IMG/VR virus record: IMGVR_UViG_3300014204_000183
Coordinates: 4,155-68,154 of that record
Strand: one strand, 5' to 3'
Length of the DNA: 64,000 nt
DNA from: a virus
Lineage: Duplodnaviria > Caudoviricetes
Numbering within the stretch: position 1 is the stretch's first letter; every line of letters starts with the position of its first letter. Shown piece after piece: positions 7,636 through 55,006 of this stretch. The notes under the pieces are model-generated. The model had not been told where the DNA came from. It searched no databases and was given only the letters and a program-made list of their open reading frames with translations. The translations under genes were made by a program, and so were the position numbers.

Positions 7636-7876
7636 TCAACAAACGCCCTCTCGCTTTCACAAATAAAGACACACGTCCGCTTAATATCTGTGCCGTATAA
7701 GGCACTTAAATTCTGGAATTAGCTGCCGTATAAATTCCGGCGAACTTCGTTATACCCTACTCCCTCCGAGTCAATCGAAAGGCCCCTGTTCGTTCTATCT
7801 TGATTCTCAGCCTGCATACCCATGGCTCGAATCAATGCACGAGTCAGGTCAGCGGCCACAGTCACACATTCAGGTG

Positions 7877-8098
7877 TCATACCAGTACCTCAACCCACCA
7901 ATGCTCATCAAATCCGCGGTCTAAAAATATAATACCAAAGCTATCTATAGCTTCGACACAGTCGTCAGCTAGTGTCTCGCAGGCATAGAAAATGCGCGCC
8001 CACCCCGGATACGCATCCACGGTGCCACCCATCATCTGACAATATTTAATAAAGTCGTTCACACTAGCTCCTATTATACAGCACGGCAGGCTTATCAC
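7877..8098 (-). CDS. hypothetical protein
   Basis: 73-aa ORF. Confidence 0.55.
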   Translation of the reverse strand: MISLPCCIIGASVNDFIKYCQMMGGTVDAYPGWARIFYACETLADDCVEAIDSFGIIFLDRGFDEHWWVEVLV

Positions 8099-8297
8099 CT
8101 AGCCGGACAACTTGACTCAATGCCTTTCCAAAAGCAATCTGTGCCTCTTGGACAAATGTCTCTTTCAAGTCCTGTTCGCATAGCCAAAAATGCACGGCAT
8201 CGGATTCATAAATTCGAGTCCAATTCCACTTCTTAATGCGTGGTGATGGAATCGGCCGCGTGCAAACAAGATACTCAACCCAATTTTGTTGCTTCAC
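8064..8297 (-). CDS. hypothetical protein
   Basis: 77-aa ORF with coupled GTGA overlap. Confidence 0.6.
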   Translation of the reverse strand: MKQQNWVEYLVCTRPIPSPRIKKWNWTRIYESDAVHFWLCEQDLKETFVQEAQIAFGKALSQVVRLGDKPAVLYNRS

Positions 8298-8729: not shown

Positions 8730-8764
8730 ACTACCAATCATACCATAAGTTTCGAGAAAGTCAA
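8727..8764 (-). repeat. 38-bp direct repeat copy 1 = promoter TTGACT-N16-TATGAT-N7-ATG
   Basis: Identical to 9001-9038. Confidence 0.9.
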
Positions 8765-9003: not shown

Positions 9004-9038
9004 ACTACCAATCATACCATAAGTTTCGAGAAAGTCAA
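9001..9038 (-). repeat. 38-bp direct repeat copy 2 = promoter
   Basis: catactaccaatcataccataagtttcgagaaagtcaa. Confidence 0.9.
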
Positions 9039-9889: not shown

Positions 9890-10075
9890 TTAGGGGTTGA
9901 TAAATTTAATTAAGACCCACTCATCTTCATCCGTACTCCGAGCATACCGATACTCAAGAGCCGCATATTCCAGCCAGCGAGTAACTCCGCTAATTGTCAC
10001 TAGCCACCAGAGAAAACGACGGAAGACACGATGTTCTCCGTCACAGGGCCGTGTAGTTTCTTTTCCAAAACGCAT
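9890..10075 (-). CDS. hypothetical protein
   Basis: 61-aa ORF. Confidence 0.55.
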   Translation of the reverse strand: MRFGKETTRPCDGEHRVFRRFLWWLVTISGVTRWLEYAALEYRYARSTDEDEWVLIKFINP

Positions 10076-10248
10076 TAAAATTCTCCTTTATAGACAATTT
10101 TCAAAATATCCCCGGCCTTGAATGTTACTGGTTCTTTGAAATCGATTGCAAATGAGTCCTCAAGAATCCAGCCATGATTAATTGGTCGCGTGATGGCGGT
10201 CCATTTTATTTCGGTGCCTTCAGGCTCTTTGGTAATTGTGTATGTCAT
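10075..10248 (-). CDS. hypothetical protein, 57 aa (not in ORF track)
   Basis: MTYTITKEPEGTEIKW...KGEF*; ATGA overlap with tatA stop. Confidence 0.6.
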   Translation of the reverse strand: MTYTITKEPEGTEIKWTAITRPINHGWILEDSFAIDFKEPVTFKAGDILKIVYKGEF

Positions 10249-10376
10249 AGCTTATCAATACCTTTCTTAAACTCCCTAAGTGCCTCTCCAAGAGACTTCA
10301 TCACCGCTGGTAATCGATTTCCGAACAACAAAAAAGCAACTAATGCCAATATGAATATATGAAAAGTGCTCAGCAT
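10245..10376 (-). CDS. tatA: twin-arginine translocase subunit TatA/E (43 aa; not in ORF track)
   Basis: MLSTFHIFILALVAFLLFGNRLPAVMKSLGEALREFKKGIDKL: TM helix, FG hinge, amphipathic helix ending EFKKG. Confidence 0.85.
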   Translation of the reverse strand: MLSTFHIFILALVAFLLFGNRLPAVMKSLGEALREFKKGIDKL

Positions 10377-10699
10377 TCAATCTGCTCCAGTATCTTCTCC
10401 CACAGGTAACAACCAGGAATCAATTGTCGTTCCAACTGTCGCTCAACGTATTCGTTCGACCATTCACGCCAGCCACGATCCACCAGCCATGAATACGGCA
10501 ATTCAACACCTGTTCGTGTTGTAATATTAAGCACCTTGTGTACTAGGCCAACTTCCAAGTCGGCCCCAATGGGTCCAGTATCCGCGGAGTCCTCTGCTGG
10601 TTGATAATGAAATCCGACGATACAATCAAACGTGCAATCATCCGAGTCAAAAATAATAGCTTCATACACAACCATCACGGCACTCCGTAAGTCTTGCAC
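10370..10699 (-). CDS. hypothetical protein
   Basis: 109-aa ORF. Confidence 0.55.
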   Translation of the reverse strand: MQDLRSAVMVVYEAIIFDSDDCTFDCIVGFHYQPAEDSADTGPIGADLEVGLVHKVLNITTRTGVELPYSWLVDRGWREWSNEYVERQLERQLIPGCYLWEKILEQIEC

Positions 10700-10931
10700 T
10701 AACGTATTCCTCCCACTGTTTCACCACGCTAGCAAACTCAATCCTTAATCGGGCTGAAAGTGTATTGACAAGGCAGTGAAAGTTCCAATGGTCTGGTTTA
10801 TAGTTTCGGCCCGCGACATCCACGTACCAGCTAGCAACTCGGCTACCGGTTGTCCTGTCAAATACATCCAGACCAGTCATAGTTGGTAGATACCAATAAT
10901 CGTACCATGGATTTAATGTAGTGAATTTCAT
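10662..10931 (-). CDS. hypothetical protein
   Basis: 89-aa ORF. Confidence 0.6.
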   Translation of the reverse strand: MKFTTLNPWYDYWYLPTMTGLDVFDRTTGSRVASWYVDVAGRNYKPDHWNFHCLVNTLSARLRIEFASVVKQWEEYVSARLTECRDGCV

Positions 10932-11308: not shown

Positions 11309-11342
11309 ATCACAATTATACACTATATTTCGAGTGTGTCAA
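11309..11342 (-). promoter_or_regulatory. sigma70-type promoter, leaderless
   Basis: TTGACA-N16-TATAAT-N6-ATG(11308). Confidence 0.9.
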
Positions 11343-11343
11343 G

Positions 11344-11844
11344 TTATAAATAATAAGTATTATTTTCTAAGAGACAACGCGCTAGCACCCATAGATGCTG
11401 ATTTCCTTTTGTCAGACAATATAGGGCGGCTAGTTTCTCTCGGAGATACCCGGCTGCAAACTTGGAGTCATATGCAACAATATTGCCACAGTTATCAATA
11501 ATATCCGCCAACTTGATTGTCTTAGCGTCAGGGCTGGCTTGGTTTAAATGCCTGCGTTCAATCGACTTACGCTTTTTTCGCGTGCCCTCCGTTGCGACAT
11601 TCGTGACTTCAGAAACTATCCTAGCTACGTTATCGCCAAATTCTTTGCGAATTTCTTCAAGAGTGACTGTGGTATCTTCAACAACATCGTGCAACCATGC
11701 CGCAGCAATTACATCGGGATCACTAGTTACTGACTGTACAATCTGAGCAACTCGGGCAGGATGAACTATATACGGTTCACCCGTGTATTTCCGCAGTTGT
11801 CCTTTGTGTGCGATAGTTGCAAATTGTTTTGGTGTCATAGTCAT
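11344..11844 (-). CDS. HD-domain protein, small alarmone hydrolase/Mesh1-like
   Basis: AHKGQLRKYTGEPYIVHP...AAWLHDVVEDT...IKLADIIDN; start trimmed to follow the tRNA. Confidence 0.85.
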   Translation of the reverse strand: MTMTPKQFATIAHKGQLRKYTGEPYIVHPARVAQIVQSVTSDPDVIAAAWLHDVVEDTTVTLEEIRKEFGDNVARIVSEVTNVATEGTRKKRKSIERRHLNQASPDAKTIKLADIIDNCGNIVAYDSKFAAGYLREKLAALYCLTKGNQHLWVLARCLLENNTYYL

Positions 11845-11847
11845 AAG

Positions 11848-11920
11848 CTGCCTCGCCAGGGCTCGAACCTGGGACAAGGTGATTAACAGTCACCTGCTCT
11901 ACCGACTGAGCTACGAGGCA
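11848..11920 (-). tRNA. tRNA-Asn(GTT)
   Basis: Cloverleaf TGCCTCG..GGTGA-CTGTTAA-TCACC..TTCGAGC..CGAGGCA-G; no encoded CCA. Confidence 0.92.
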
Positions 11921-12734: not shown

Positions 12735-12929
12735 TTACTCCCAACTCCCTCCCCACTGGTCGATGTATCTATCTGGATGTTCCAACTGTGCTGGCGAAGT
12801 ACCATTTGATCGATCGAATCGCGGATCTTCAGACCAGCCACAATCGCACCCGTAGGGCCCATAGATCATTCCAACACCCACGTCAACTGAGTCCCTAGAA
12901 CACGGTAAGTTATAGATTGGACAGTTCAA
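12735..12929 (-). CDS. hypothetical Cys-containing protein
   Basis: VDVGVGMIYGPYGCDCGWSED. Confidence 0.55.
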   Translation of the reverse strand: MNCPIYNLPCSRDSVDVGVGMIYGPYGCDCGWSEDPRFDRSNGTSPAQLEHPDRYIDQWGGSWE

Positions 12930-13180
12930 TTTACATGGACCTTTGGTGGTTCGGTGCAGACATACCCCGACAACGTTTCAAATCGCGTTTTGTACCCTGG
13001 TGGTAAGCCAATTCTATACACAACACTGCGGCTTGCATCTCGCATACCTTCTTCTCCGAATACAATGGAACTTGTCATAATCCCATTAACTCGAAGCAAG
13101 GCTTGCATAATCTTGGCCGTCGAAGTCTTTCCAAGATTCGGCCAACTCTCCTCTTCACCTACGTCATAGTATTCATACAT
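12926..13180 (-). CDS. hypothetical protein
   Basis: 84-aa ORF. Confidence 0.55.
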   Translation of the reverse strand: MYEYYDVGEEESWPNLGKTSTAKIMQALLRVNGIMTSSIVFGEEGMRDASRSVVYRIGLPPGYKTRFETLSGYVCTEPPKVHVN

Positions 13181-13382
13181 CGCTCAATCTCCTTCTAGGA
13201 TAGGGTAGCCCATAATTCCATCGGCCAGTTTTCTTTAACTTGTCGTGCCCTTCTGTGTATGCTCTAATCCACTCAGGTGAGGCGTGAGAATATTCATCAT
13301 CACCGTGGCCAGCCACACAGCCTCCAATATAATGCATCATGCATGTTTCACACGGGCCGCTACAGTCACTAAACATCTTCAT
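13173..13382 (-). CDS. hypothetical Cys-containing protein
   Basis: CSGPCETC...CVAGHGDD. Confidence 0.55.
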   Translation of the reverse strand: MKMFSDCSGPCETCMMHYIGGCVAGHGDDEYSHASPEWIRAYTEGHDKLKKTGRWNYGLPYPRRRLSDV

Positions 13383-13617: not shown

Positions 13618-13784
13618 TGCTTTTTCTCTGTTGTCCAAAATTTCCAATTATCTATATTATCGAATGTCCTCTGCAAGCCGCGTCTATCTTCTTCCGCCTC
13701 TGCTTTAGATGGGTATGAACCACAGTCGCCGCAATCGGGTATCTCAGTTATCCACCACCCATCATCCCTTTTTACTAGTTTCAT
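13614..13784 (-). CDS. hypothetical protein, 56 aa (not in ORF track)
   Basis: MKLVKRDDGWWITEIPDCGDCGSY...TEKKQ*. Confidence 0.55.
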   Translation of the reverse strand: MKLVKRDDGWWITEIPDCGDCGSYPSKAEAEEDRRGLQRTFDNIDNWKFWTTEKKQ

Positions 13785-13953
13785 TGCTTAGCCGCTCAAT
13801 CTCGTCTATTGCTAGTTGTAAGGCCCCGAGCGCCTCATATGTTGATGTTAGTTTAATAAAGTTATGGAATGGGTATGCTTCATCACGAATGGCTTCGAAG
13901 CGCATCCGCCACATTTTTGTCAACTCTGGATTCCATCGACTAAACTTGTCCAC
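13762..13953 (-). CDS. hypothetical protein
   Basis: 63-aa ORF. Confidence 0.55.
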   Translation of the reverse strand: MDKFSRWNPELTKMWRMRFEAIRDEAYPFHNFIKLTSTYEALGALQLAIDEIERLSNETSKKG

Positions 13954-13954
13954 G

Positions 13955-14533
13955 TTAGCGGGTGCTCCTTGCTCGGCATTCCCAGCAACGAATTAACATA
14001 CACACGTCGTAGGCGTCGTCAAGGGCATCGTGTGTTACTGTTCTGTCAATGCCAGCCCGTCGTAGGCATTCCTGTGTATTGGGCGGCGTCTTATCATCAG
14101 GCTGTAAGAAAAGATTACCGGGATCAATAACACGGTGGCTAATTGACAAGTCTGACCATCCAGATAAATTTTTCAGAAAACGTAGATCAAATCCAGCCAC
14201 ATTCTTACCGGCTAGAACAATTTCTGACCCAGTGTACGTGTGGAGCCACTCTTTAAATTCATAGACTAGATCATCGCTATCAACAATCTTGACGGGTTTC
14301 CCTAAATGTTGTACTTCTTCTCCTGGCGAATGTTTTGCCAGCGTATCGAAAATAGGCTTATTAAGTGCCAAGGCAAATGGCTCGCCACTGTACCATGAGT
14401 CCCATGCAAGAGCGTTGAAGGTCGGGCTACGTTCCAACGGCCATTCAGTATCGTCAAGCACTGCGGCCAACTGTAGAATCTGGCAGCCGCTCCCCAAACC
14501 AGTTGTTTCAATATCAATACTTACATATTTCAT
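13955..14533 (-). CDS. DEDDh 3'-5' exonuclease (DnaQ-like)
   Basis: SIDIETTG, GKNVAGFD, THDALDDA. Confidence 0.9.
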   Translation of the reverse strand: MKYVSIDIETTGLGSGCQILQLAAVLDDTEWPLERSPTFNALAWDSWYSGEPFALALNKPIFDTLAKHSPGEEVQHLGKPVKIVDSDDLVYEFKEWLHTYTGSEIVLAGKNVAGFDLRFLKNLSGWSDLSISHRVIDPGNLFLQPDDKTPPNTQECLRRAGIDRTVTHDALDDAYDVCMLIRCWECRARSTR

Positions 14534-15163: not shown

Positions 15164-15177
15164 AAACTTCTCCTTAG

Positions 15178-15250
<73 letters not shown>

Positions 15251-54904: not shown

Positions 54905-54919
54905 ATATGTCTCCTTAAA

Positions 54920-54993
54920 TGGCGGGGGCAGGACTCGAACCTGCGACCTCGAAGTTATGAGCCTCGAAAGCTAACCAACTGCTCCACCCCGCT
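54920..54993 (-). tRNA. tRNA-Met(CAT), initiator-like body
   Basis: AGCGGGG TG GAGC AGTTGGTT AGCT..CGAGG-CTCATAA-CTTCG..CCCCGCC-A; 1:72 mismatch. Confidence 0.88.
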
Positions 54994-55006
54994 ATGCCCC
55001 GAAGGG

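Follow-up and report, generated by a model that had tools for sequence, protein, structure and literature searches.

A 43-residue TatA-family protein encoded by an uncultured tailed phage and streamlined Tat components in its relatives

The window analyzed here, a 64,000-bp stretch of DNA that represents bases 4155-68154 of a 68,154-bp IMG/VR virus record, carries a gene for a protein of 43 amino acids that is confirmed as a real member of the TatA family and is the shortest copy known. Phages are known to encode their own versions of host components that run short during infection, and our findings extend this known theme of phage-borne host machinery. What is new is a clade of phages with streamlined Tat parts alongside a Tat-exported protease, and the 43-residue protein is itself new, as a minimal form within a known family. 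The most economical reading of these sequences is that the protein acts as a functional supplement of TatA and thereby supports Tat export in infected cells, to which we assign a probability of roughly 0.6. Full-text literature searches returned no report of a phage-encoded TatA or TatC, and a 2026 review of Tat evolution makes no mention of either.

An initial annotation, made without database searches, had proposed that a 43-residue open reading frame (ORF) with a transmembrane helix, an FG hinge and an amphipathic helix encodes a TatA, and had named a search with TatA family HMMs as the way to check it. The identification holds. Pfam model PF02416 (TatA_B_E) matches the protein over profile positions 1-40 of 53 with 42.9 bits, against a gathering cut-off of 21 (E 2.9e-11), and the match was reproduced in a six-frame search of the whole record. 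The best model by far is TIGR01411 (tatAE, NCBIfam) at 48.8 bits (E 3.7e-13, profile 1-42 of 47), with TatB models reaching only 13-14 bits. This score lies below the TIGR01411 cut-off of 53.9, and the shortfall of about 5 bits fits the absence of the C-terminal profile positions from so short a protein. Sequence matches in the PDB extend over residues 3-40 and include E. coli TatA (2lzs, 2lzr, 2mn7, 9e07_F) and chloroplast Tha4 (7b7o). The exact protein is already present in a public protein collection (P0001), where PF02416 is attached to it.

The anatomy of the protein is likewise that of cellular TatA/TatE proteins such as E. coli TatA and Tha4, with which it shares the polar residue, the 12-residue anchor, the F-G hinge and the amphipathic helix with its conserved Phe and Lys-Lys. 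It begins with M-L-S-T-F, followed by the polar residue H6, exactly 12 hydrophobic residues that end at F18 (IFILALVAFLLF), and G19. The F18-G19 hinge leads to an amphipathic helix (residues 22-40) and then to a tail of three residues, D-K-L. The hydrophobic moment after the hinge (muH) is 0.61, compared with 0.24 in shuffled sequences (P about 0.001), and an AF2 model built on 23 family members consists of two helices, at residues 4-19 and 22-42, separated by a break at 20-21 (mean pLDDT 81). Residues F36-K37-K38 align with F39-K40-K41 of E. coli TatA, in which Phe39 is highly conserved and functionally essential (PMC5601993). The hydrophobic count of 12 is identical in all five phage copies that we have found.

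A working TatA requires a polar residue, an anchor of 12 residues, Phe-Gly, an amphipathic helix and some residues that are acidic (PMC9527704 section 7), whereas transport does not depend on its C-terminal tail (PMC13673990 section 5). Each of the literature-defined features can be recognized in the window protein, except that the acidic patch is cut to one Asp. Only D41 follows the amphipathic helix here, whereas the related phage copies have DD, DPDE, DDD or DE at this site. Because E. coli TatA needs its D45-D46-E47 patch for full activity (PMC4121141, PMC9527704), the window protein may be weakly active, although removal of charge from the patch lowers TatA activity and does not abolish it (PMC9527704). 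As far as truncated forms of E. coli TatA (Lee et al. 2002; Warren et al. 2009) are described in PMC13673990 and PMC4121141, the window protein keeps the same essentials, namely the anchor, the amphipathic helix and a few further residues. Unlike those engineered proteins, it is a natural, selected truncation. It ends at about E. coli residue 46, which makes it slightly shorter than the TatA 1-49 construct (PMC4121141), and it is without the D45-D46-E47 motif.

The initial annotation had also noted the lack of a C-terminal tail, and comparison with cellular proteins bears this out. Among 79 cellular TatAs of Planctomycetota, at least 11 residues follow the amphipathic helix (range 11-91, median 27), versus 3-8 residues in the five phage copies, and the two ranges do not overlap. 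The closest cellular kin are the 'FGNRLPSVM(K/R)SLG' TatAs of Planctomycetota (Pirellulales/Thermoguttaceae MAGs and Calycomorphotria hydatis). The window protein is 52-67% identical to cellular Planctomycetota TatAs, which are 53-86 residues long, and it differs from them in being phage-encoded, in its length and tail, in its single acidic residue and in an N-terminus shortened to M-L-S-T-F. His at the polar position was considered as a phage-specific change and rejected, because it is also found in 17 of 81 cellular Planctomycetota TatAs.

Loss of the tail throughout the clade might also be taken to mean that the protein does not support transport and instead poisons it. A tail-less TatA could enter host TatA assemblies or fill TatC sites, and so block the export of envelope proteins such as receptors, which would result in superinfection exclusion or host shut-down. 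Tail removal from E. coli TatA is reported to promote aggregation (PMC4121141), so altered oligomerisation of the phage protein is possible, and some substitutions in the helix trap TatA as stable oligomers (PMC5601993). A place in an early-type operon and the absence of a detected cargo in the window would also suit such an inhibitor. However, the residues known to be essential (F18, G19, F36, K37/K38 and the polar H6) are unchanged, the tail is not needed for transport (PMC13673990), a sister phage carries an intact TatC, and the Tat-signal protease of other relatives needs a working pathway. Given these observations, we consider a dominant-negative or hijacking TatA unlikely.

The classification of the DNA as phage, which the initial annotation had assumed, is borne out by its gene content and by synteny with viral relatives. 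The record is 51% complete by CheckV, or about half of a genome of ~134 kb. The window encodes a DNA polymerase, a primase-helicase, an exonuclease, an RNA ligase, an HNH endonuclease and three tRNAs, and has long runs of small genes on the same strand. Four related viral genomes also carry tatA: G004 (105 kb, CheckV 79%, TatA of 48 residues), G005 (147 kb, 100%, 50 residues), G006 (175 kb, 100%, 45 residues) and G023 (56 kb, 43%, 47 residues). In G004, G005 and G006, many genes occur in the same order as in the window, and the primase-helicase of G004 is 83% identical to that of the window. A tblastn search with the window TatA found no match in deposited phage genomes, and among PHROGs an unnamed family (phrog_29532) weakly matches TatA.

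These relatives also bear on whether the gene could be a decaying or neutral passenger, that is, a recently captured fragment of a host gene. With its very small size and a score slightly below the TIGR01411 cut-off, the protein could resemble such a fragment. Nevertheless, the gene is kept in five phage lineages despite saturated synonymous divergence. Among the copies from the window, G004, G005 and G006, pS is 0.72-0.96 (saturated) and pN is 0.15-0.30, and it is this difference that indicates purifying selection rather than a decaying capture. The frame is intact, all motifs are kept, and the gene order is common to three relatives. In G004 (contig L002), a homologue of the 109-residue gene next to the window tatA occupies 7705-8007, directly upstream of tatA at 8001-8147, with the same 7-nt overlap. 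A passenger therefore seems most improbable.

The overlaps seen in the window itself agree with the earlier proposal that the ORF is translationally coupled on both sides (Table 1). The ATG of tatA overlaps the stop codon of the upstream 109-residue gene by 7 nt (ATGCTGA), the tatA stop codon overlaps the ATG of the downstream 57-residue gene by 4 nt (ATGA), and GGAG is located 8 nt ahead of the tatA start codon. Neither neighbor has a Pfam or PHROG match. The 89-residue gene of the same operon has homologues near tatA in related phages, with 54% identity on contig L002 and 40% on L004.

Table 1. Locations of tatA, its surroundings and related Tat genes
Feature	Location	Strand	Basis or remark
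tatA, minimal TatA of 43 aa	window 10245..10376	-	ORF, PF02416, AF2, muH, selection
109-aa gene upstream of tatA	window 10370..10699	-	ORF; homologue in G004
57-aa gene downstream of tatA	window 10075..10248	-	ORF
89-aa gene, same operon as tatA	window 10662..10931	-	homologues on L002 and L004
sigma-70-type promoter, TTGACA-16-TATAAT	window 11315..11342	-	12/12 match; nearest one upstream of tatA
next promoter of same class, downstream of tatA	window 9011..9038	-	bounds ~2.3-kb polycistron
Tat-signal protease, 334 aa	G005, L092 10584-11588	-	
Tat-signal protease homologue, 720 aa	G006, L095 1495-3657	-	
phage TatC, 236 aa	L091 14944-15654 = G004:C1:103030-103641	-	TIGR00945

The two promoters listed belong to a set of 25 stereotyped sigma-70-type promoters in the window, compared with 3.2 expected (0 of 100 shuffles reach 25). 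Most members are on the minus strand, between positions 400 and 25000. No minus-strand terminator was found between the promoters at 11342-11315 and 9038-9011. On the basis of this spacing and the lack of an intervening terminator, tatA appears to be the fifth gene of a ~2.3-kb polycistron of early type (host polymerase), and its expression is likely to occur early in infection. The same part of the window has several other features. Two identical 28-bp promoter units (TTGACTTTCTCGAAACTTATGGTATGAT) lie at 8737-8764 and 9011-9038 on the minus strand, on either side of one small gene. An HD_4/HD-domain phosphohydrolase (RelA/SpoT-type hydrolase family by its Pfam name) is encoded at 11344-11877 on the minus strand. 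The start of its longest ORF overlaps a tRNA-Asn gene (11847-11920, minus strand) by 31 nt, so that translation probably begins at a start further inside this ORF. Elsewhere in the window, there are two tRNA-Met genes, at 15177-15250 and 54919-54994.

The location of tatA is also relevant to the suggestion that the protein might act without TatC. An anchor joined to an amphipathic helix could thin or depolarise the membrane, and a phage might employ it as a holin, a pinholin or an exclusion factor that collapses the proton motive force. TatA clusters do thin membranes by hydrophobic mismatch, holins of the BhlA/TpeE type have the same architecture (PMC9527704), and a tail-less form may oligomerise more readily (PMC4121141). 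However, the neighbors of tatA have no lysis-related matches, and the promoter ahead of it is of the early sigma-70 type. Furthermore, the protein keeps to the host TatA consensus, even at the polar position that contacts TatC and for which a holin acting by itself would have no use, and the sister phage G004 encodes a TatC. A role as a TatC-independent membrane weakener is accordingly quite improbable in our estimation.

The initial annotation had taken the FGNRLP hinge as a clue to a host among Planctomycetota, and this suggestion has fared well. A word-indexed search of 5.8 billion proteins yielded 23 matches. The nearest are 43-48 residues long and 68-78% identical to the window protein, and those that bear a name are TatAs of Planctomycetota. 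From 1.84 billion representatives, an exhaustive HMMER search retrieved 680 matches; among the best 150, only 6 have a length of 50 residues or less. When 185,579 species genomes were scanned for FGNRLP[SAQ][VI]M, 358 copies were confirmed, and all but two of the best 80 carry a Planctomycetota label. These two exceptions are on contigs (L033 and L060) binned as Paratractidigestivibacter sp. (Actinomycetota) and Candidatus Nealsonbacteria, and both are probably mis-binned. The data support Planctomycetota as the probable host of the window phage.

Complete Planctomycetota genomes have two TatA-family genes in tandem, whereas the window phage, G004, G005, G006 and G023 have exactly one each. 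In a tree of the TatA core, which is suggestive at most because it was built with FastTree from 36 columns and has no support values, the His-type phage copies group with His-type cellular copies, and the G006-type copy stands apart. As a separate observation, the two best-scoring HMMER representatives, P0024 (135 residues) and P0025 (150 residues), each contain two full TatA modules (anchor, hinge and helix) in tandem within a single protein.

A search of the related records for TatC produced one strong match (160.8 bits), in the sister phage G004. The protein passes the equivalog cut-off of TIGR00945 (136.3 versus 132.7 bits) with the whole profile covered, and it keeps the invariant HLxELR and GLYxHERR motifs, which in E. 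coli TatC hold the signal-binding residues E15 and E103. Its closest cellular relatives are all from Planctomycetota, are 330-380 residues long and are 42-54% identical to it. Relative to them, the phage protein is without the N-terminal extension and the ~100-residue loop between TM1 and TM2. A second short TatC is 85% identical to that of G004, and its cluster-mate (P0416) is on a contig of 136,190 bp. The unnamed PHROG family phrog_36238 also matches the G004 protein (1.5e-16).

The G004 record was trimmed from a scaffold of 133,985 bp, and we considered whether its tatC belongs to a host flank. This possibility was rejected, because the genes on both sides of it, including those in the 3 kb beyond the record trim, have homologues in the window, G005 or G006, and GC content stays near 40%. 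In reverse orientation, G004 from 88 to 95.5 kb aligns collinearly with bases 4188-148 of the record that holds the window, which places the syntenic tatC site ~7.5 kb outside this contig, past its start. TatC was not found in the 51%-complete record of the window, a search that is uninformative with the syntenic site off the contig. No TatC was found in G005, G006, G023 or four other large relatives; TatC is present in Planctomycetota hosts.

Two further observations concern phage TatC genes. The tblastn matches to TatC among deposited phage genomes were rejected as bacterial-looking records filed as phage. Several such 'phage' records (INPHARED H3-H10; Salmonella, Listeria, Staphylococcus and Acinetobacter) contain an ordinary cellular-type tatC and look like bacterial contigs or host flanks. 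The gene run around the G004 tatC also encodes a cyclophilin-type peptidyl-prolyl isomerase (PF00160, 147.9 bits) and a cREC_REC receiver-like protein, on the minus strand of L091 at 12901-13356 and 13736-14155, respectively.

A candidate cargo was identified in other members of the clade. With the Tat signal model TIGR01409, one G005 gene scores above the cut-off (17.7 versus 16.7 bits) and one G006 gene matches weakly. The G005 protein begins with MDRREFLK, followed by a hydrophobic stretch and ALA-QE, and the G006 protein begins with MYMDRRDFLK. The two are homologues and belong to a family with about 380 proteins in the collection and 424 IMG/VR stretches, for which there is no Pfam model. 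A strict RR-x-hydrophobic-hydrophobic motif is present in 82 of the best 120 family members, and ~18 more have RR-x-A-L variants; a few of these 120 have a Sec-like signal or none. Residues Q97, C102, H261 and N281-S282-W283 are invariant and make up the papain catalytic set. An AF2 model (pLDDT 87, pTM 0.84) matches xylellain, cathepsins and papain at probability 1.00, and also 'Peptidase C1' proteins from uncultured tailed phages; fusions to peptidoglycan-binding or muramidase domains occur among the latter. In G005, the protease heads the late block and is followed by two thioredoxins, the large terminase, portal, adaptor and scaffold. A role for the protease in the envelope or wall late in infection is a reasonable inference.

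Both complete tatA phages (G005 and G006) encode this protease. In the window's own 51%-complete record, neither a twin-arginine protein nor a protease homologue was found by regular expression, TIGR01409 or homologue search, and G004 (105 kb) likewise has no TIGR01409 match and no protease homologue. No twin-arginine cargo was found within 8 kb of tatA in the relatives, and tblastn with the protease gave no match in deposited phage genomes. An obligate partnership between tatA and this cargo was rejected, because tatA is present in only 1 of 20 other protease-bearing viral contigs and in none of the 6 that are at least 90% complete. As most protease-bearing contigs are without tatA, the protease presumably uses the host Tat system as a rule, with tatA and tatC as lineage-restricted additions.

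The initial annotation had raised the possibility that the phage boosts export of its own secreted enzymes. This proposal gains indirect support from the TatC and the Tat-signal protease of the relatives; the assembled 51% of the window phage genome has yielded neither a cargo nor a TatC. A bolder version of the same idea is that the clade possesses its own streamlined translocase, composed of a TatA of 43-50 residues and, in at least some members, a TatC of 236 residues, as a private route that exports the papain-like peptidase to the periplasm late in infection. Export of this kind would constitute a Tat-dependent, possibly holin-independent, lysis or envelope step, and the TatC and perhaps the protease of the window phage would then reside in the unassembled half of its genome. 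There is precedent in B. subtilis, in which TatAd-TatCd with PhoD forms a two-component TatAC translocase dedicated to one cargo (PMC13673990). G004 is similar in that a single TatA is accompanied by a single TatC and a further TatA-family gene (TatB analogue) was not found, and its relatives have one conspicuous Tat cargo. Unlike in B. subtilis, no single phage genome has so far turned up with all three of TatC, tatA and cargo, the assembled half of the window phage genome has yielded tatA only, and the G004 tatA and tatC genes are ~32 kb apart rather than in one operon. We put forward a private translocase only tentatively, as a possibility with the odds against it.

For the broader reading that the protein is a TatA supplement, we infer the timing of expression, the membrane insertion, the interaction with TatC and the benefit to the phage as follows. 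An ancestor of the clade would have captured tatA from a Planctomycetota (Pirellulales/Thermoguttaceae-like) host, after which the gene would have been pared to the part needed for transport, namely the anchor, hinge and amphipathic helix. Its transcription would start at the host-type sigma-70 promoter of an operon of early type, and its translation would be coupled to that of the neighboring genes. The protein would then insert in the host cytoplasmic membrane and join the pool of TatA protomers, which would assemble at substrate-loaded TatC, which may be that of the host or one encoded by the phage itself, as in at least one sister. In this way, export capacity for folded twin-arginine proteins could be kept or raised during the takeover of host gene expression. 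The likely beneficiary would be a folded enzyme encoded by the phage, such as the Tat-signal papain-like protease that heads a late module in relatives. Each translocation event draws in at least 16 protomers of TatA (PMC13186574), and because so many copies are needed, a phage that relies on late Tat export would gain from an early TatA of its own.

If the window tatA is active, then its 43 residues would set a lower limit, reached by natural selection, on the size of a TatA that works, and the TatC of the sister phage, with 236 residues versus about 350 in the host, would likewise be of minimal size. Such minimal parts could be useful for approaching the unsettled question of how TatA passes folded proteins across the membrane. 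Activity would also imply that Tat export is a resource on which Planctomycetota phages depend, probably for the papain-like peptidase found on >400 viral contigs. Moreover, a clade of large phages (~134-175 kb) that is without a cultured representative would gain a host assignment based on a gene.

The protease genes themselves exhibit other features. In G005, two small thioredoxin-fold genes, one with the motif WCSVC, are located directly downstream of the protease gene (L092 9804-10073 and 10076-10336, minus strand), and their products may be redox helpers for folding of the cysteine enzyme before Tat export. Several members of the protease family contain inteins (L095 1495-3657, minus strand; P0320, P0343 and P0344; Pfam Hint/intein), which are unusual for an exported enzyme. 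The 720-residue G006 protease is among these, and its insert has endonuclease-like PHROG matches.
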